A DNA stretch of 8,639 nucleotides from Candidatus Iainarchaeum sp. (GCA_028693335.1 JAQUVR010000022.1:1-8639), one strand, 5' to 3'; positions 2 through 8,639 are shown, counted from the first letter of the stretch. Notes: a model not told the origin generated them from the letters alone. Made by a program: numbers and translations.

Positions 2-481
2 GATAATTATGTAAATTTAGGTAATAATTCTGTATTTAATATAACAGATCAAGTAACATTATCTATTTGGATGAAAATGGATGGATATACAGATTATGAT
101 ACCTTCTTTTGGAAGACAAATTCAGGGATATTAGGAGACTTAGGTAATTATGGTTTAAGTATGACTAATTCTCAAAAAGGGCGTTTTGTTATTGGTAGTG
201 TATACGCTATTTCTACTTTGGCTTTTCCAATAAATACCTGGATACACATGGTTGGAACATATGATGGTAATTATCTACGATTATATAAAAATTCTGATAT
301 CGCAACTAATCCCGTTGCTAACACTGAAAATATAAAAATAAGTGTTCAAAGTTTAACTTTGGGAATAAGAAAGTACAATTCTACTTTTGGTTATCCTTCA
401 AATGCAATAATAAGAGATGTTCAAATATATAATAAGGCATTAAGTCCAAAAGAAGTTAGATTGCTTTATACTATGAGATAA
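2..481 (+). CDS. 5'-truncated protein (open to the window edge) with a C-terminal LamG / concanavalin-A-like lectin domain (Laminin_G_3 type)
   Basis: Frame 2 is open from nt 2, upstream of the track's ATG at 71 ('DNYVNLGNNSVFNITDQVTLSIWMKMD...'). It carries classic Laminin_G_3 signatures: 'TLSIWMK', 'NTWIHMVGTYDGNYLRLYKN', 'LTLGIRK' and the terminal 'IRDVQIYNKALSPKEVRLLY'. Stop codon is TAA at 479-481. Confidence 0.85.
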   Translation, partial: DNYVNLGNNSVFNITDQVTLSIWMKMDGYTDYDTFFWKTNSGILGDLGNYGLSMTNSQKGRFVIGSVYAISTLAFPINTWIHMVGTYDGNYLRLYKNSDIATNPVANTENIKISVQSLTLGIRKYNSTFGYPSNAIIRDVQIYNKALSPKEVRLLYTMR

Positions 482-2501: not shown

Positions 2502-4907
2502 ATGAAAGGTTTTGGAATAATTATTTTATTTATTTTTATTCTTTTAACTGGTTGTGTTTATTCTTTTGAATATAACGATGTTAGAGAAATAACCATAAAT
2601 GATTCCTTTTTTGATCTAAATATTTTCATAGATTTTGGTTATTATAAGATATCTGATTCTAATAATCAAGTAATAGATCAATATAATCTTTTTGAAAACA
2701 TTGATCTAAATCAGATTGTATTTAATATAGATTCAATAGATCATAGAGAAAAAGAATATAATTTAGTTATAGATGAAAATATTGATCTAAGAGAAAAAGA
2801 TTTTTACTTTGATCTTAACAATTTAACTATTACTGGATCTTTAAAAAAAGTTTTTGATTTAAATTTAGAGATTACTAATTTTTATAAAAAAGAAGATCTT
2901 TTATTTATAATTTCTGACACTAATCTTTTTGTTTATAGATATGAAGATAAGGAATACAGATCTATTTTTAGAATTGACACTAATCAAACAATTTACAATT
3001 TAGAATATTTATTTTATTTAGATAAGAACTATTTATTTTTAGCAAACGGATCAAATGGAGTTGGGATCTATGAAATTGATTTTAATTCTTCAGAAATTGC
3101 ACTAAATCTTGGACGGGCTGTTTTTTCATTTGATGGTTTTGATTATGATACTAGTTATATTTATTTTTTAGAGAGTGCTCACAGTGGATCTTATTTGTTT
3201 TCTTTTGTAACTAATTTAATTCAATTGCGATATGTTTTATATGATTTGAATGGATTGATAAATAATAACAATTATATCGAAAATGGTTTTATTCTTGGTG
3301 GTGCATTCTTTCCACAAACTATTTGGCACAATCAAGATCTAAACAGATTAATTATTCCTCTTAAAAATTCAACAAACACAGGAAAAATAGACTTTATAGA
3401 TGAGCCATCAGGATTAGCTATCTTTTCTAGTGGACAATTTTTAGGAATCTATAAGGACCTAGATTCCTTGTCTAATAAGGCTTTTTCTCTTAACACAGAT
3501 AAATTAAATGTCTATAACAAAGATTCAATCGGTGGACCAACATCTCCAATAAAAACATTAGATCTAAATTACTCTGCAAGATCTTTTACAATTAATAAAG
3601 ATCAAAATAGATTCTTTGTTCTTTTTGATAATAATATTCAAATTTTTGATTATAATTATGAAGATAATAATTTTTTATTATTTAAAACCATTTCAGAAAT
3701 TAACACAGATCTAAATAAAATAGTTTACAATAATAATTCTTTGATTATTACAGAAGACCAGAATTTTACAAAAATAAGTTTAGATCATAATTATTCTTTA
3801 AGTTTTTTTATCCCATTTCCAAAAATAAATGATCTTTCTATTACTCCTCAAAATATCAATTATTCTTTGTATAATTCTTTTTTAGGAGATCTGAATTTTT
3901 CTTTTATAATAGAAGACTATAATATTCTAAAAAACGACTCTAATTTTTTACCATTATCTTTTGATCTTAACCTTACAAATGAAAACAAATCTATATCTAT
4001 TCTAAATGATCAAAATATAGATAATAATATTTGTACTAATGTAGACCTTACTACTAAAAGTTGTAATGTTGTGTTTAATATTAAAACTATTAATAATATC
4101 CATAATCTTACAAACGGACAATATCAATTAAAATTAATAACAAATAACATTTATTCAACACCATTAAACTTTGATCTGACTCATTCAACTGGTGGTTCGG
4201 GTGGATCAAGTGGTTCTGGTTCAGCTCCATCAACAAGTCAACCAAAAACAGATTTTTCTCCTAACAAATATACTGAAATCTTAGACTTATTAAAATTAAA
4301 CTATTTTCAACAAAAGCAATTATTTGAAAGATATTTATTAAATTTTCCAAATCTTAATTTTGATCTTAATTTTTCTGATATCAATTTTTCTAAAAATTAT
4401 GATCTTTTGCTAGATAATTATAATAATTTACCTAAACTAAAAATAATTGACATAAATTATTCACAGAAAGATCCTTTTTTTAATAATGAAGATTATTCTT
4501 TTGTTTCTTTTAATAATAAAAAAATAACACAATTATTAGTAATTTCAGATACTAACAAAGAATATTTGTTTGTTGAAATTGATAACAATAACGATCAATT
4601 AATTCTTGATCATTTTCCTTATTTTGTTATTGCAAAAACTAGTTTTCCAATAACTAGATTTGATAATAATTTTATTTATATAGAATCTAATCTAAATTAT
4701 TTGGTTAATATAAGTTATAAAGACCAAGTTAGTTTTAATACCATAAAAATAGAAAAAATTTCTAGAAATAAAGAAATTCTAGAAAAAGAAATAATTTATA
4801 AAGAAGAAAATGAAAAAACTAATAATAATAAATTAATCTATATTGGCGCAAGTATATTTTTACTATTTTTTCTTGCTTTTAGATTTAGGGGTAGACTTTT
4901 TTACTAG
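2502..4907 (+). CDS. 801-aa Asn-rich secreted/surface protein: lipobox-type signal peptide, beta-propeller-like (LVIVD-like) repeats, Gly/Ser linker, C-terminal TM anchor
   Basis: N-terminus 'MKGFGIIILFIFILLTGC' is a signal peptide ending in an L-T-G-C lipobox. 'YLFLANGSNGVGIYEID' resembles the LVIVD propeller-repeat motif, and several strand-turn-strand blade-like segments follow. 'STGGSGGSSGSGSAPSTSQP' is a linker. The C-terminus 'LIYIGASIFLLFFLAFRFRGRLFY' is a TM helix plus basic stop-transfer. There are many NxS/T sequons. Confidence 0.85.
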   Translation: MKGFGIIILFIFILLTGCVYSFEYNDVREITINDSFFDLNIFIDFGYYKISDSNNQVIDQYNLFENIDLNQIVFNIDSIDHREKEYNLVIDENIDLREKDFYFDLNNLTITGSLKKVFDLNLEITNFYKKEDLLFIISDTNLFVYRYEDKEYRSIFRIDTNQTIYNLEYLFYLDKNYLFLANGSNGVGIYEIDFNSSEIALNLGRAVFSFDGFDYDTSYIYFLESAHSGSYLFSFVTNLIQLRYVLYDLNGLINNNNYIENGFILGGAFFPQTIWHNQDLNRLIIPLKNSTNTGKIDFIDEPSGLAIFSSGQFLGIYKDLDSLSNKAFSLNTDKLNVYNKDSIGGPTSPIKTLDLNYSARSFTINKDQNRFFVLFDNNIQIFDYNYEDNNFLLFKTISEINTDLNKIVYNNNSLIITEDQNFTKISLDHNYSLSFFIPFPKINDLSITPQNINYSLYNSFLGDLNFSFIIEDYNILKNDSNFLPLSFDLNLTNENKSISILNDQNIDNNICTNVDLTTKSCNVVFNIKTINNIHNLTNGQYQLKLITNNIYSTPLNFDLTHSTGGSGGSSGSGSAPSTSQPKTDFSPNKYTEILDLLKLNYFQQKQLFERYLLNFPNLNFDLNFSDINFSKNYDLLLDNYNNLPKLKIIDINYSQKDPFFNNEDYSFVSFNNKKITQLLVISDTNKEYLFVEIDNNNDQLILDHFPYFVIAKTSFPITRFDNNFIYIESNLNYLVNISYKDQVSFNTIKIEKISRNKEILEKEIIYKEENEKTNNNKLIYIGASIFLLFFLAFRFRGRLFY

Positions 4908-5150
4908 AACTTTTTTTTTAACCACTGGCTTTTTAATAACTTTTTTGGTTGCTGGCTTTGTTACTTTCTTTGCTACTGGTTTTTTGGTTATTACTTTCTT
5001 AGCAACTGATTTTTTAGCAACAACTTTTTTAGCAACTGGTTTTTTAGTTGTCTTTTTTTCTAATTTTTCTAGTTCAATTTCTAAATCTCTCAAGATTTCT
5101 TCTAGTTTTTTTTCTTCTTTTGTTTTGATTGTTGGTTTTTTTGTTGTCAT
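4863..5150 (-). CDS. 95-aa coiled-coil plus Lys-rich histone-H1-like repeat protein (possible nucleic-acid-binding protein)
   Basis: Taking the second Met of the track ORF gives 'MTTKKPTIKTKEEKKLEEILRDLEIELEKLEKK' followed by KKPVAKK-type repeats ('TKKPVAKKVVAKKSVAKKVITKKPVAKKVTKPATKKVIKKPVVKKK'). A TATA-like box lies about 28 nt upstream of this ATG. The opposite-strand ORF (4843..5193) is a Phe/Leu-rich mirror image of the Lys codons. Confidence 0.6.
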   Translation of the reverse strand: MTTKKPTIKTKEEKKLEEILRDLEIELEKLEKKTTKKPVAKKVVAKKSVAKKVITKKPVAKKVTKPATKKVIKKPVVKKKVLVKKSTPKSKSKKK

Positions 5151-5173
5151 AAAAATAATAAACAATAATAAGA

Positions 5174-5183
5174 TTTATATATT
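5174..5183. promoter_or_regulatory. Single near-palindromic TATA-like element (tttatatatt) shared by divergent genes
   Basis: It lies in a 53-nt intergenic spacer, with its centre about 28 nt from the minus-strand ATG (5150) and about 26 nt from the plus-strand ATG (5204). Confidence 0.35.
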
Positions 5184-5203
5184 ATTATGCTGATAGTATT
5201 TTT

Positions 5204-6004
5204 ATGTTAAACATAGTAATAATTATCTTTTTAATTTTGGGTTTTTCTGTTTTGTGGTTTTATTTGATTTTTACAACCTATAATAAATACAGAATTAGAC
5301 ATTTAATAAAAGATACTCCAACATCAAAAATAAGATCTGCAGCTATTGGTTTAGTTGAACTTAATGGAAAGGTTATTGCTGATAAATATCTAGAAACACC
5401 TTTTTCTAAACAAAATTGTGTTTATTATGAATATTTAAAACAAGTTTTTTATAGAACAGATAAATCAGCTGGCTGGAGAACACTAGCTCATGAAAAGAAA
5501 CATATAGATTATTATATTTATGATGATACTGGCAAAATAAAAGTAAAAGCTGATGAAGTAAAATATGTTGTGAGTCCAAAAATTGCAAAACTGGTTTTAG
5601 CTCCAAGATTTAGTGTAAAACAGATTTTTGAAATATTAAAAAATCCAATAATTACTCCAGAACAACAAGGTTCTATAGAAAATAAGGAAATTAAAGATAT
5701 TGAAATAAAAAATGGAAAAGTTAATGAATTTGGTTATTATTATCCCGGAGATCTAAGAATAATTGAAAGATTTTTAGAACCTGATAATCAAGTTTATGTT
5801 ATTGGAACTCTTGGTAATGAAGATAATAGTGATCAACATATAATAAAAAAAGGAAAATATGAAAAAACTTGTTTTGTTTCAGATAGTTCTGAAGAACAGA
5901 TATTAAAAAAATATAATCTTGAGTTTATTTTGTTGTTAATAGTTACAATTATTATAACTTCTTTACCATTAATATATATATTAAAATTAATTATAAGTGG
6001 TTAA
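5204..6004 (+). CDS. GIDE-domain membrane protein (MUL1/GIDE 'E3 ubiquitin ligase'-family core domain flanked by two TM helices)
   Basis: N-terminal TM 'IVIIIFLILGFSVLWFYLIF' is followed by 'TPTSKIRSAAIGLVELNGKV...ETPFSKQNCVYYEY', which matches the prokaryotic GIDE-domain signature as I remember it ('TS.IRSAAQGYVEL.G...aP.S...CV.Y'). Later motifs are 'IYDDTGKIKV' and 'VYVIGTL', then a C-terminal TM 'FILLLIVTIIITSLPLIYIL'. Confidence 0.8.
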   Translation: MLNIVIIIFLILGFSVLWFYLIFTTYNKYRIRHLIKDTPTSKIRSAAIGLVELNGKVIADKYLETPFSKQNCVYYEYLKQVFYRTDKSAGWRTLAHEKKHIDYYIYDDTGKIKVKADEVKYVVSPKIAKLVLAPRFSVKQIFEILKNPIITPEQQGSIENKEIKDIEIKNGKVNEFGYYYPGDLRIIERFLEPDNQVYVIGTLGNEDNSDQHIIKKGKYEKTCFVSDSSEEQILKKYNLEFILLLIVTIIITSLPLIYILKLIISG

Positions 6005-6006
6005 AT

Positions 6007-6564
6007 ATGTTGCTAATTGTTGAATTATTTGTTTTTTTGTTAATTGTTTTAGTTTTATTTATTTTTTATATAATTTTTATTTATAACTCCTTAGTAAGAT
6101 TAAAAAATAATATTACAAAAGCATGGAGCAATATAGAAGTTTTATTAAAACAAAGATATGATGAGCTTCCAAAGTTAATTGATACTGTTAAGGGTTACAC
6201 AATACATGAAAAATCAGTATTAACTGATCTGATAAAAATAAGATCTGACTACAAAGGTGCAAAAGATATTCATGATATTGCAGAAATTAATGATAAAACA
6301 GATGATTTGATTAAAAAATCTTTTCTTGTTTTTGAAAAATATCCAGATCTAAAAGCAGATGGTAATTTTTTAAAACTTCAAAAAAGAATTTCTGAAATTG
6401 AAAATATGATTTCTGATAGGCGTGAATATTATAATGATGTTGTAACCATCTACAATACTAGAATTGAGCAAATACCATATAATCTTATAGCAAATTCATT
6501 AAAATATAAGCCAAAAGATCTATTTGTTGCAAATGATTCTGAGAAAAAGAATATTAGGATCTAA
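6007..6564 (+). CDS. lemA: LemA family membrane protein (185 aa)
   Basis: N-terminal TM helix followed by the hallmark LemA motif 'YNSLVRLKNNITKAWSNIEVLLKQRYDELPKLIDTVKGYTIHEK..L', with 'RREYYNDVVTIYNTRIEQIPYNLIA' near the C-terminus. The start codon lies 2 nt after the upstream stop, so the two genes form an operon. Confidence 0.93.
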   Translation: MLLIVELFVFLLIVLVLFIFYIIFIYNSLVRLKNNITKAWSNIEVLLKQRYDELPKLIDTVKGYTIHEKSVLTDLIKIRSDYKGAKDIHDIAEINDKTDDLIKKSFLVFEKYPDLKADGNFLKLQKRISEIENMISDRREYYNDVVTIYNTRIEQIPYNLIANSLKYKPKDLFVANDSEKKNIRI

Positions 6565-6579
6565 TATATATATTTATAA
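6564..6579 (+). promoter_or_regulatory. AT-alternating TATA-like element (atatatatatttataa) upstream of the pilin-like gene
   Basis: It begins at the last base of the LemA stop codon and is centred about 34 nt upstream of the ATG at 6606. A T6 tract (6581-6586) lies in between and could also terminate the LemA transcript. Confidence 0.3.
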
Positions 6580-6605: not shown

Positions 6606-8033
6606 ATGCTTTTTAAAAGATCTATCTCCCCATTGATCGCAACAATTTTATTAATAGTTGTCTCAGTAATATTGATCACTGTTGTTTTAACCTGGGCAAA
6701 AGGCTTTACACAAAGCACAACTAACAAAGCCACAGATCTTTTAGATCAATCCAAAGAAATTCCAAGAACTGGTGTTTTTTGGCAAACTTCTCTTTTAGGA
6801 GATCAATTGATTTTAAGAAATCAAATTAATGATGATATTGAGATTAAGGGTTATAAGATCTTATCAACTGATTATAATTCAGATTATTTTTGGCTAAATA
6901 GTTATAGGCCTTTAGAAACTAATATAACTTTTAGTCCATCAACCTTAACTCCAATCACTTTAGTTTGTGTACCAACTAATAAATTTTATTTAGAATTAAT
7001 AGATATCAATGATCAATCATATACTTTAGAGATCAACCCAATAAACAACAGATCATTTACTAGTTGTAATACTTTTAATGTACCTTTGTGGGAGTTTGAA
7101 GAATTGGATGGTTCTTATACAATAAATACATTTACAAAATCTTCTGGTAATTTAATTAATAATGGAACTTTTGATTTGGATACCGGTTGGAATAAGAGTG
7201 GTGATGTTCTTCCGACAATATCTGGAGGCACAGCCAATTTTAACAATTTAAATAACAATGGTTATTTTTATCAAACAAATGTGGTTCAAAATAATAAAAA
7301 ATACAGAATTTCTTTTGATGTTATTAATTATTCTTCGGGTCAATTATATCTTCGTGTTGCTGGACCCAATAGTCAACAACATGCATTAATTATTGACGAT
7401 GATGGGCATTATGATGTTGATGTTTATGTTGGAGTAGATGTTGTTTATGCAGACACATCAATTAGGTTTTATGCTTTGAGTGCTGGTAATGGTTTTGTGG
7501 GTTCAATAGATAATATCTCTGTTATTGAAATAGATCCATTAGAAACAATAACAGATGGAACCAAATATCTAGAATCAATTATTACAGGAAACCTTTTAAT
7601 TCCAAGTCCGACAGTTTATGGGACCTGGGAATTTGATGTTTTTACAAATGTTGGATCTTATTCTTCTTTTTTTCTAAGTAATTCTGATTTAACAACAGAA
7701 GGTTATTCAATTGATTTTGGATATAGAATAAGATTATATCGTTTTTCTGGTCCGGTTGTGTTATTTTATACAGATCCAAGTTTTCCAATGAAAAACAATA
7801 CTTGGTATAAATTTAAAATAATTAGAAAAACAAATGGAGAATTTACTGTATTAATAAAAGGTGCAAATTTATCATCAACTCCAAATTATGGTGGTTGGTA
7901 TTTAGTGCCCACAAATAATGGGATAAACCCAATTATAGATAACACACACCAATCATTTACTAACTTGATATTGATTTTAAGGGCAAATGATAGAATTGCA
8001 AACATAAAAATTAGTCCGGAGATTGATCAATGA
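6606..8033 (+). CDS. Archaeal type IV pilin-like protein (class III signal peptide / Pilin_N-type N-terminus) fused to a Cys-pair module, a CBM-like jelly-roll and a ConA/LamG-like domain
   Basis: The start is moved from the track's TTG (6585) to the in-frame ATG at 6606, giving 'MLFKRSISPLIATILLIVVSVILITVVLTW', the canonical archaeal pilin N-terminus (short basic leader, then 'SP.IATILLI' hydrophobic helix). 'NLINNGTFDLDTGWNKSG ... FVGSIDNISVIE' follows the start/end pattern of CBM4_9 / galactose-binding-like modules. 'GTWEFDVF ... GYSIDFG.RIRLYR ... NTWYKFKIIRKTNGEFTVLIKG ... RIANIKI' is ConA-like. Confidence 0.85.
   Translation: MLFKRSISPLIATILLIVVSVILITVVLTWAKGFTQSTTNKATDLLDQSKEIPRTGVFWQTSLLGDQLILRNQINDDIEIKGYKILSTDYNSDYFWLNSYRPLETNITFSPSTLTPITLVCVPTNKFYLELIDINDQSYTLEINPINNRSFTSCNTFNVPLWEFEELDGSYTINTFTKSSGNLINNGTFDLDTGWNKSGDVLPTISGGTANFNNLNNNGYFYQTNVVQNNKKYRISFDVINYSSGQLYLRVAGPNSQQHALIIDDDGHYDVDVYVGVDVVYADTSIRFYALSAGNGFVGSIDNISVIEIDPLETITDGTKYLESIITGNLLIPSPTVYGTWEFDVFTNVGSYSSFFLSNSDLTTEGYSIDFGYRIRLYRFSGPVVLFYTDPSFPMKNNTWYKFKIIRKTNGEFTVLIKGANLSSTPNYGGWYLVPTNNGINPIIDNTHQSFTNLILILRANDRIANIKISPEIDQ
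6615..6682 (+). repeat. Copy 1 of a 68-nt direct repeat (pilin signal-peptide/helix coding cassette)
   Basis: By hand alignment, 59 of 68 nt are identical to 8042-8109 ('aaaagatct.t.tccccattgatcgc.acaat.ttattaatagttgt....gtaatattgatca.tgt'). The rest of the two genes is much more diverged at the DNA level. Confidence 0.8.
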
Positions 8034-8639
8034 TGTTACACAAAAGATCTGTTTCCCCATTGATCGCCACAATATTATTAATAGTTGTAAGTGTAATATT
8101 GATCAGTGTAATATTAATTTGGGGAAAAGAATTTATTACAGATACAACAAATACAACAAATAATTTATCAGATTTAAAAAATTTTGAATCTAATAAAGGT
8201 GTTTTTTGGTTTAATTCTATAAATGGAAATAAGATTTTTATAAAGAATACTACTAATAAAAATATAACTCTTAAAGGATATTCTATTATTTCAACAGAAC
8301 ACACTGGTTCTTGGACAAATAATTTTTATCCATTACAAGAAAACATTAATTTTTCAGAATATTCTCAATCTCAAATAGAAATAATTTGTGTTCCTGATAA
8401 TCGTTTTGTTTTGGATCTGATTGATATTAATAATAATCATTATCTTTTAGATATACCAATTACTGGAAACAGAGAATTCATTCCTTGTGATTACTATTCT
8501 GTTCCTTTTTGGTTATTTTCTGGAGATCTCGATAATTATTCAATAAATCAAATAGAAATTAATTCAGGAAATCGTGTTTTAAATGGAGGCTATCTTAATT
8601 CAACAGATTGGATTGATAGTGATGAAGATGGAACTCCAG
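8030..8639 (+). CDS. Second pilin-like paralogue, 3'-truncated by the window edge
   Basis: Not in the ORF track because no stop codon is reached. ATGATG at 8030 overlaps the upstream TGA (8031-8033) as caATGAtg. The frame is open for 203 codons: 'MMLHKRSVSPLIATILLIVVSVILISVILIW...GVFW...LKGYSIIS...IEIICVPDNRFVLDLIDINNNHYLLDI...FIPCDYYSVPFWLF...'. It is collinear with the N-terminal ~170 aa of the upstream gene. Confidence 0.85.
   Translation, partial: MMLHKRSVSPLIATILLIVVSVILISVILIWGKEFITDTTNTTNNLSDLKNFESNKGVFWFNSINGNKIFIKNTTNKNITLKGYSIISTEHTGSWTNNFYPLQENINFSEYSQSQIEIICVPDNRFVLDLIDINNNHYLLDIPITGNREFIPCDYYSVPFWLFSGDLDNYSINQIEINSGNRVLNGGYLNSTDWIDSDEDGTP
8042..8109 (+). repeat. Copy 2 of the 68-nt direct repeat
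   Basis: See copy 1. Same orientation, 1,427 nt downstream. Confidence 0.8.

Follow-up and report, generated by a model that had tools for sequence, protein, structure and literature searches.

Putative modular type IV pilin-like adhesins with a virus-shared lectin-fold cassette in a Candidatus Iainarchaeum archaeon

This study concerns an 8,639-bp stretch of DNA (JAQUVR010000022.1:1-8639, assembly GCA_028693335.1; hereafter the window, meaning the whole stretch analysed) from a metagenome-assembled genome (MAG) of Candidatus Iainarchaeum, and two adjacent genes at its right end, referred to here as A and B. Both genes probably encode modular type IV pilin-like surface adhesins, an interpretation to which we assign a probability of about 0.6. 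Alignment and structural models show the composition that defines a modular pilin in the sense of Raynaud et al. (2021), namely a pilin module, a short linker and functional modules foreign to the pilus. Gene A (6606-8033, plus strand; ATG at 6606, TGA at 8031-8033) encodes 475 amino acids, in agreement with the length of about 475 given in the initial annotation, which had been made from the sequence alone. Gene B (8030-8639, plus strand) starts at ATG 8030, with a second ATG at 8033, and runs past the end of the window, leaving 203 amino acids visible. The stop codon of A and the start codon of B share the sequence ATGA at 8030-8033. The window has a G+C content of about 24% (76% A+T). The organism belongs to the Iainarchaeota (Diapherotrites), within the DPANN archaea (Nanobdellati), and is described as tiny; the DPANN-like origin proposed at the outset was therefore correct.

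A and B are paralogues, with 45% identity over 195 amino acids (BLASTP, E 6e-50), and the DNA at 6615-6746 is 73% identical to that at 8042-8173. Of the first 33 codons, 20 are shared by the two genes, 6 show synonymous and 7 non-synonymous differences. The N-terminus has therefore been kept by selection at the protein level and not by very recent copying. Gene B is identical to the partial protein PHU47_01655 of NCBI (P0068). It is also 96.5% identical, across its 202 visible residues, to the 497-aa homologue P0014, which shares the three-part architecture of gene A; gene B is therefore regarded as a full paralogue. All the sequence features on which the initial annotation had based its proposal of tandem pilin-lectin genes were found where it had placed them. 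These include the ATGA overlap, the motifs KRS[IV]SPLIATILLIVVSVIL, GVFW, [IL]KGY.I[IL]S, CVP.N[KR]F.L[ED]LIDIN, a second Cys and VP[LF]W.F in both proteins, NLINNGTFDLDTGW...SIDNISVIE in A, and VLNGGYLNSTDW in B. The module common to A and B is likewise real, but it extends over about 195 amino acids rather than the 130 or so first estimated.

Homologues were collected as a set of 14 full-length proteins with 34-95% identity to gene A, and 15 full-length sequences were aligned. The mean pairwise identity differs strongly between the parts of the protein: 77% in the leader and hydrophobic helix (aa 1-33), 63% in the head, 23% in the middle domain (median 17%), 66% in the linker that follows it and 40% in the C-terminal domain.

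An archaeal type IV pilin-like N-terminal module

The lone hydrophobic segment of gene A lies at aa 4-35. The N-termini of A, MLFKRS/ISPLIATILLIVVSVILITVVLTW, and of B, MMLHKRS/VSPLIATILL... (the slash marks the predicted cut), both follow a FlaFind-like rule, that is, a short basic leader, a [KR]-[G/A/S] site and then approximately 20-22 uncharged hydrophobic residues. This is what would be expected of the class III signal that had been proposed for them. In gene A, the predicted leader MLFKRS (6606-6623, plus strand) would be cut by a prepilin peptidase after Ser6, at KRS/ISP. Cleavage is predicted at this site because ISPLIATILLI of A aligns with the mature VSPIIATILLI of 8REY, the CdiPB pilin of Cuniculiplasma divulgatum, whose first 11 residues are missing from the mature protein (PMC12448462). 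Position -1 is a serine in most members of the family and an alanine in P0012 and P0013, which fits a cleavage site requiring a small residue.

The leader is followed by a long N-terminal helix (aa 7-50; 6624-6755, plus strand), predicted from residue 9 to 48 or 50, whose hydrophobic part (aa 7-33) is nearly identical among paralogues. The helix leads into a pilin head (aa 56-165; 6771-7100, plus strand), predicted to be a small beta-sandwich, in which Cys121 and Cys154 are invariant. An AlphaFold model of the N-terminal module, built with 41 sequences, gave a pLDDT of 78.8 and a pTM of 0.60, with a helix at 9-48 and strands at 58-178. When this model was compared with the PDB using Foldseek, archaeal type IV pilus subunits and archaellins outranked all other folds (8fk7_A, E 4e-6; 8q30, which is Aap; 6nav; the archaellins 9eq7 and 5tfy; 8fj5). 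The same was true at the sequence level: a family profile searched against all PDB sequences retrieved archaeal type IV pilus subunits first, with 8fk7_A from Pyrobaculum at E 1.9e-5, and also matched 8rey_M and then the Natrinema pilin 8gi2_A.

With regard to hidden Markov models (HMMs), the N-termini come close to the archaeal pilin families and stay below their cut-offs. Pilin_N (PF07790) scored 23.0 bits in A and 18.9 in B against a cut-off of 25.2, and TIGR02537 scored 18.1 and 17.1, respectively, against 20. Pilin_N matched 11 of the 15 family members at E <= 0.01, a weak UpsA match was found in the N-terminus, and for a fragment with 95% identity a PF07790 annotation has been precomputed (JGI and Pfam).

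Such sub-threshold scores would also be obtained if the N-terminus were an uncleaved type II anchor or a Sec signal that resembles pilins through hydrophobic composition, given that hydrophobic helices attract spurious matches. This explanation is nevertheless very improbable. The conserved KR[SA][ILV]SP[LI]IAT aligns residue for residue with solved pilins, the predicted helix and head match archaeal type IV pilus subunits before any other fold in the PDB, and PF07790 is the precomputed annotation of the 95%-identical fragment. On the combined strength of motif, profile and predicted fold, and not as a member by HMM cut-off, we accept the N-terminal module as archaeal type IV pilin-like, as the initial annotation had suggested.

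A hypervariable lectin-fold cassette shared with viruses

Beyond the pilin-like module, gene A encodes two further domains, both predicted to be jelly-rolls. The middle domain (aa 181-305; 7146-7520, plus strand) resembles carbohydrate-binding modules (CBMs) of the 4/9 type and is the hypervariable part of the protein. It is connected through a conserved linker, EIDPLETITDGTKYLE (aa 306-325; 7521-7580, plus strand), which is a likely recombination junction, to a C-terminal domain similar to concanavalin A (ConA) and laminin G (LamG) domains (aa 326-475; 7581-8030, plus strand). The C-terminal domain contains an invariant YG.WEFD motif and has a conserved end, ...GDRIANIK..PEI. Two homologues, P0011 and P0013, carry an extra insertion of about 130 aa within it (alignment columns ~500-650); the insertion opens with a second CBM-like motif, NGDFE..., and is thus a nested additional module.

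The assignment of these domains relies on predicted folds. In a Foldseek search of the PDB, both domains together aligned with 4jqt_A, the putative glycosyl hydrolase BT3469, over 440 columns. Further matches comprised CBM22 tandems, a porphyran CBM, ERGIC-53, galectin, laminin/neurexin LG domains and the CBM-like domains of Vip3, and the CBM-like matches of the middle domain included 4xup, 8xmz and 2c26. In BFVD, the best match was A0A0F7L6G0, an uncharacterised protein of a marine virus (E 2e-16, 22% identity), followed by tail proteins, adhesins, receptor-binding proteins and LamG-like jelly-rolls. The proposed fusion of a pilin N-terminus to two beta-sandwich domains of CBM and ConA-lectin fold is thus supported by the models. 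The CBM4_9 and LamG labels that came with it hold as descriptions of fold, but the HMM scores of gene A are below the Pfam cut-offs. CBM_4_9 (PF02018), with a cut-off of 25.9 bits, scored 17.2 on the full-length protein and 19.8 when the domain was searched by itself, and matched in only two of the 15 homologues. For Laminin_G_3 (PF13385), the C-terminal domain of gene A gave no match, LamG similarity in this protein remaining below the cut-off, and P0012 alone scored (17 bits against 27.6). When the isolated domains of gene A were searched against Pfam, no family reached its cut-off. A suggested relation to DUF1080 has the fold match to 4jqt_A as its sole basis.

From their folds, the two domains would be expected to bind glycans, and a binding site could be made up of the invariant residues E342, D344, Y373, Y401 and R407. 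Asn-X-Ser/Thr sequons, counted as an indication of glycosylation, were as frequent as expected and are uninformative in this respect.

The annotation of 4jqt_A, the best fold match in the PDB, raises the question of whether these proteins are surface-displayed enzymes, in which the C-terminal domain would be a catalytic domain of the glycoside hydrolase type, from the lectin/glucanase superfamily, and the CBM-like domain would direct it to a polysaccharide. A CBM joined to a catalytic module is a common architecture. Moreover, Glu342 and Asp344 are invariant, and motifs of the ExDxxE type are catalytic in jelly-rolls similar to glycoside hydrolase family 16 (GH16). However, the third acidic residue is absent from the GH16 position (WEFDVFT, WEFDLYK), no glycoside hydrolase family was matched by sequence, and the closest relatives by sequence are not enzymes but phage tail proteins and viral proteins of no assigned function. 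We therefore consider an enzymatic role unlikely, and an adhesin-like role remains the preferred interpretation.

The viral relatives were found at several levels. The middle domain weakly matches phrog_30593, and six proteins (P0052, P0057, P0058, P0062, P0064 and P0067) that align to about aa 165-320 of gene A are phage tail proteins (phrog_5939) that also bear phrog_30593. A scan of IMG/VR yielded 33 viral contigs (L018-L050) with either the combined middle and C-terminal cassette or the C-terminal domain alone, at 24-40% identity and with tblastn E-values down to 4e-31. In all 11 contigs examined, the cassette forms the C-terminal end of the protein or lies close to it. All nine carriers with an unambiguous full-length open reading frame (ORF) are 600-1000 aa long and begin with MAKIF..F.KGSL.D; viral carriers start in a LamG-like N-terminal region, without a pilin N-terminus. 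The viral cassette ends in ...GGSGTNPVTDNTYTTSNYFV.DLDAGDRIANI...GIEV, as seen in L021 (4321-7317) and L018 (4273-6936).

Cellular organisms outside the family also possess parts of the cassette. The C-terminal domain was found in secreted bacterial proteins from Ignavibacteria, Bacteroidota, Peribacteria and Saccharibacteria. In a Methanosarcinales MAG (L009, CAZJQL010000001.1, 9386-10801), a 472-aa protein that is 26% identical to aa 195-474 of gene A (E 4e-18) carries the cassette behind another N-terminus, MDNKGQAALEFLTTYGWAFLIILVMVGG / MDNKGQAALEFLTTYGW (KGQAALEFL...). This N-terminus, to which Pfam gave no score, is presumably a euryarchaeal class III signal of the KGQ type. If so, at least two separate fusions of the cassette to pilin-type N-termini have taken place. 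The payload modules also exist without a pilin part, in bacteria and viruses, and the payload shared with viral proteins suggests that binding modules move between viruses and the adhesins of cells.

Paralogue repertoire, genomic context and mode of display

The window contains a third member of the family at its left edge. The ORF at 2-481 (plus strand) is the 3' part of a gene of the pilin N-module plus Laminin_G_3 type, with a Laminin_G_3 score of 72.6 bits (E 5e-20), above the gathering cut-off of 27.6. Its product corresponds, with 100% identity, to aa 206-364 (the C-terminal 159 aa) of P0033, a 364-aa protein whose N-terminus, MLSKRSISPLIATILLIVVSVIL, is of the same pilin type. Contig L014 extends the left edge of the window, and L015 carries the gene B homologue alone. 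Four further paralogues share a locus-tag prefix, and hence the MAG: P0003 (481 aa), P0005 (467 aa), P0048 (431 aa) and the LamG protein P0030 (364 aa). The genome therefore encodes at least seven family members, three of which are in the window.

A nearest-neighbour analysis by domain revealed that the paralogues are mosaic. P0007 and P0010 are 94% identical in the N-module and 100% identical in the middle domain, with unrelated C-terminal domains; P0009 and P0011 have middle domains that are 99% identical and C-terminal domains that are not in common; and gene A is 94% identical to P0003, from the same MAG, in the N-module while differing in both the middle and the C-terminal domain. The breakpoints coincide with the conserved linkers, including the junction between the middle and C-terminal domains. 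Together with the hypervariability of the middle domain, this bears out the initial suggestion of a diversifying set of paralogues. We also considered a diversity-generating retroelement and rejected it: the window contains no near-identical, template-like repeat of the variable domain, and no reverse transcriptase is encoded among its ORFs. The variation therefore looks like domain exchange rather than mutagenic retrohoming.

Other combinations extend the repertoire. The pilin module is followed by Laminin_G_3 alone in about 40 proteins of approximately 365 aa, by LamG and the cassette in P0015 (681 aa), and by a PF07581 domain in P0066. In the paralogues of approximately 365 aa, as in the ORF at 2-481, Laminin_G_3 reaches its gathering cut-off. 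The helix without the head precedes an FGE-sulfatase domain (PF03781) in P0055 and P0063, and an RCC1 propeller in a 738-aa protein (L017, 15251-17467). The FGE-sulfatase or C-type-lectin-like fold is the usual target of diversity-generating retroelements. Database entries for members of the family all bear 'hypothetical' or generic names, such as 'LamG domain-containing' and 'flagellin-like'.

In related genomes, family members form tandem arrays of three to six paralogues (L001, L002, L004 and L005). In the L001 array, the starts of the six members overlap or abut; the L004 array has three members. In Candidatus Forterrea multitransposorum, an array of three members (494, 445 and 617 aa) is followed 6.3 kb downstream by a Peptidase_A24 gene. 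On L005, three members are followed by a LemA gene and then, 3.4 kb from the array, by a T2SSE ATPase gene and two T2SSF genes, and on L016 a 770-aa T2SSE is located 0.8 kb from the family member P0016. A layout with two platform genes has been described for archaeal type IV filament (TFF) systems in DPANN (bioRxiv 10.64898/2026.04.22.720090), and Diapherotrites reference genomes have been reported to have type IV pili (PMC8561730). The expectation that pilus machinery should accompany these genes was thus confirmed for T2SSE, T2SSF and a prepilin peptidase beside homologous arrays in related genomes, but not in the window.

Some features near these arrays were recorded in their own right. The T2SSE of L005 (7090-8790) has an N-terminal 4Fe-4S dicluster (ferredoxin-like) domain, which is unusual for a secretion or pilus ATPase. 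On L016, two small genes between T2SSE and P0016 (9230-9822) resemble, by eye, a RelE/YoeB-type toxin and an antitoxin; nearby Abi and AAA-ATPase genes suggest a mobile or defence-rich region. A LemA gene adjoins or is near the array in three genomes (window 6007-6564, L001 15638-16192, L005 3812-4366). In the window it lies directly upstream of gene A and is paired with a gene for a GIDE-like membrane protein (5204-6004); it is directly downstream of the array in L005 and one gene away in L001. This proximity may reflect plain synteny or a functional link.

Searches for related subunits bear on how the proteins are displayed. When 1.84 billion representative proteins were searched exhaustively by phmmer for the head (aa 35-175), 23 relatives were returned, none shorter than 203 aa and most of 350-780 aa. 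A search with aa 1-175 returned fragments of the modular family alone, and three short fragments were all that matched the 42-aa N-terminus. In phmmer and two word-indexed searches, then, neither this head nor this N-terminus turned up in a stand-alone major pilin. Any pilus shaft would therefore have to use a different pilin; otherwise, the proteins would stand on short stalks or be tethered to the membrane.

This result is among several that weigh against the interpretation of A and B as pilin-like adhesins. The others are the sub-threshold scores for Pilin_N, TIGR02537, CBM_4_9 and LamG given above; the presence of serine at position -1, which presumably falls outside the original FlaFind pattern; the TM-scores to pilins, which range from 0.36 to 0.46; and the moderate quality of the full-length AlphaFold model (pLDDT 66, pTM 0.38). 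No pilus biogenesis gene was detected among the ORFs of the window, and PHROGs gave no useful match for five viral carriers or for the neighbours of the carrier on L021, which leaves the viral carriers without an assigned function. Furthermore, the N-terminus SPLIATILL[IV]VV... is near-identical across the FGE-sulfatase, RCC1 and PF07581 fusions. As it is found on unrelated domains, it may serve as a general display signal.

These observations bear on a second mode of display, in which the class III signal would merely serve for export and anchoring, as in the sugar-binding proteins of Sulfolobus. In this membrane-tethered or bindosome-like arrangement, the processed proteins would remain in the membrane or build a short assembly other than a pilus, and polysaccharides or other ligands would be captured by their domains on the cell surface rather than at the tip of a pilus. 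PibD is known to process substrate-binding proteins besides pilins (PMC4858521). The lack of a stand-alone major pilin and the fusion of the same N-terminus to many other extracellular domains agree with such tethering, as does the lack of assembly genes directly beside the arrays of L001, Forterrea and the window; the L005 array, however, is close to T2SSE and two T2SSF genes. A conserved pilin-like head with the fold of assembled archaeal pilins would be superfluous for a mere anchor, and the hydrophobic helix hardly varies from one paralogue to another. A near-invariant helix is also present in the filament-forming PilA paralogues of Haloferax. Overall, we regard tethered display as the less likely of the two modes, though clearly more probable than an enzymatic role or a generic anchor.

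If A and B are indeed modular pilin-like adhesins, the following sequence of events can be envisaged. The two genes would be co-transcribed and translationally coupled via the ATGA overlap. A prepilin peptidase of the PibD/FlaK type would remove the leader after Ser6, as the motif and the alignment with 8REY suggest. The helix and the disulfide-capable beta-sandwich head would then constitute the pilin module, which would permit extraction from the membrane by the T2SSE ATPase and the T2SSF platform. The protein may sit at the tip of a type IV pilus, stud its length or be carried on a short stalk. A flexible linker would present the hypervariable CBM4/9-like and ConA/LamG-like jelly-rolls, homologous to viral domains, and the ligand bound by these would be on the surface of a partner cell or a substrate and would most likely be a glycan. 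The paralogues, together with exchange of middle and C-terminal domains at the linkers, may supply a repertoire of specificities. In summary, the architecture, lineage and diversification proposed by the initial annotation are borne out, whereas glycan binding, leader cleavage, incorporation into a filament and a role in host recognition are inferences.

With regard to the expression signals of the two genes, a GGAG at 8018-8021 (plus strand), 8 nt 5' of ATG 8030, might be the Shine-Dalgarno sequence of gene B, and TATATATATTTATAA at 6565-6579 (plus strand), about 34 nt 5' of the ATG, might be the TATA box of gene A, in which case the mRNA of gene A would be near-leaderless. Both assignments are tentative in DNA so rich in A+T. 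A longer ORF for gene A starting at TTG 6585 was considered and is unlikely, because every homologue begins at the M-x-x-K-R-S position.

The remainder of the window contains, after the LamG member, genes for a 263-aa protein of no known kind, a NUDIX protein, an 801-aa secreted protein and the GIDE-like and LemA proteins, followed by A and B; tRNA and Rfam scans of the window gave no matches. The 801-aa Asn-rich protein (2502-4907, plus strand) has no Pfam or NCBIfam match. Its hydrophobic N-terminal signal ends in a lipobox-like LLTGC, a Gly/Ser-rich linker, STGGSGGSSGSGSAPSTSQP, is found in its interior, and its C-terminal transmembrane segment bears the basic tail FRFRGRLFY; it is probably exposed at the cell surface. 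Two overlapping antisense ORFs are located at 4843-5193 (plus strand) and 4863-5165 (minus strand). The latter encodes a Lys-rich protein of 100 aa with KKPVAKKV-type repeats and a weak HC2, histone H1-like match, and a 30-nt periodic repeat is found within the pair at 4963-5049.

Relation to known systems and significance

The closest characterised parallel is found in Streptococcus sanguinis, whose PilC, a glycan-binding protein of the pilus tip, combines a pilin module with Ig-like and ConA-like lectin modules, and whose PilB combines a pilin module with vWA (PMC9934059, PMC8179133). The proteins described here share with these modular pilins a class III signal, a small pilin module, a short linker and bulky modules of the ConA-like superfamily. 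They are comparable in size (mature PilC, ~53 kDa; gene A, 475 aa), and both systems are encoded beside other pilin-like genes. Pilin plus PF13385 is among the commonest architectures in a survey of bacterial modular pilins, which makes no mention of archaea (PMC8179133), and the paralogues of approximately 365 aa have exactly this composition. In contrast to S. sanguinis, the pilin module here is archaeal (Pilin_N/archaellin-like, with a beta-sandwich head) and has no sequence relation to IPR012902. Moreover, the domains behind it are two tandem jelly-rolls that are shared with viral proteins and shuffled among paralogues, one of the two being hypervariable.

The solved archaeal pilins 8FK7 (Pyrobaculum calidifontis), 8Q30 (Sulfolobus Aap), 6NAV (S. 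islandicus) and 8REY have the same N-terminal motif, alpha-1 helix and beta-sandwich head. They are, however, single-module major subunits of 130-165 aa, whereas the proteins of this family have about 300 extra residues, and the sequence family of the head comprises a few dozen proteins, none of which stands alone. The Sulfolobus bindosome also places a class III signal on large extracellular binding domains and depends on processing of the PibD type (PMC4858521; bioRxiv 10.64898/2026.04.22.720090). Its proteins are ABC-transporter substrate-binding proteins without a pilin head, whereas here a pilin-like head is combined with a lectin-fold cassette. The viral carriers resemble A and B in their homologous middle and C-terminal domains, the C-terminal position of these domains and their modular exchange, and phage tail proteins share the middle domain. 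They differ in lacking the pilin N-terminus, and the carriers of the full cassette are functionally unannotated.

A comprehensive census of archaeal type IV pili does not mention lectin- or LamG-fused pilins (PMC4858521). In the literature searched, no paper linking DPANN, laminin G and pilin was found, nor was a characterised archaeal example of this architecture. The initial claim that no characterised example exists was overstated, given that lectin-bearing modular pilins such as PilC have been characterised in bacteria, but it holds for archaea as far as the searched literature goes. The modular-pilin principle is therefore already known; what is new is its archaeal form, the lineage-specific head, the virus-shared hypervariable cassette and the mosaic arrays.

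A more far-reaching and distinctly tentative proposal is that Iainarchaeial DPANN archaea reshuffle virus-shared, pilin-borne cassettes at the linkers and thereby change the surface or glycan gripped by their pili. If true, this would constitute an archaeal, pilus-based analogue of the cassette switching of phage tail fibres, and it would provide a direct molecular handle on the partner or host specificity of DPANN.

Little is known about the way in which ultrasmall DPANN archaea recognise surfaces or partner cells and attach to them, and most of their surface proteins are annotated as 'hypothetical'. The family described here is compact and recognisable, as it combines a lineage-specific pilin module with exchangeable lectin-fold cassettes, and its variable part is expressible and suited to glycan arrays. 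It would extend to archaea the modular-pilin principle, which has been established experimentally only in bacteria, and it gives annotators a naming rule for a set of hypothetical proteins.

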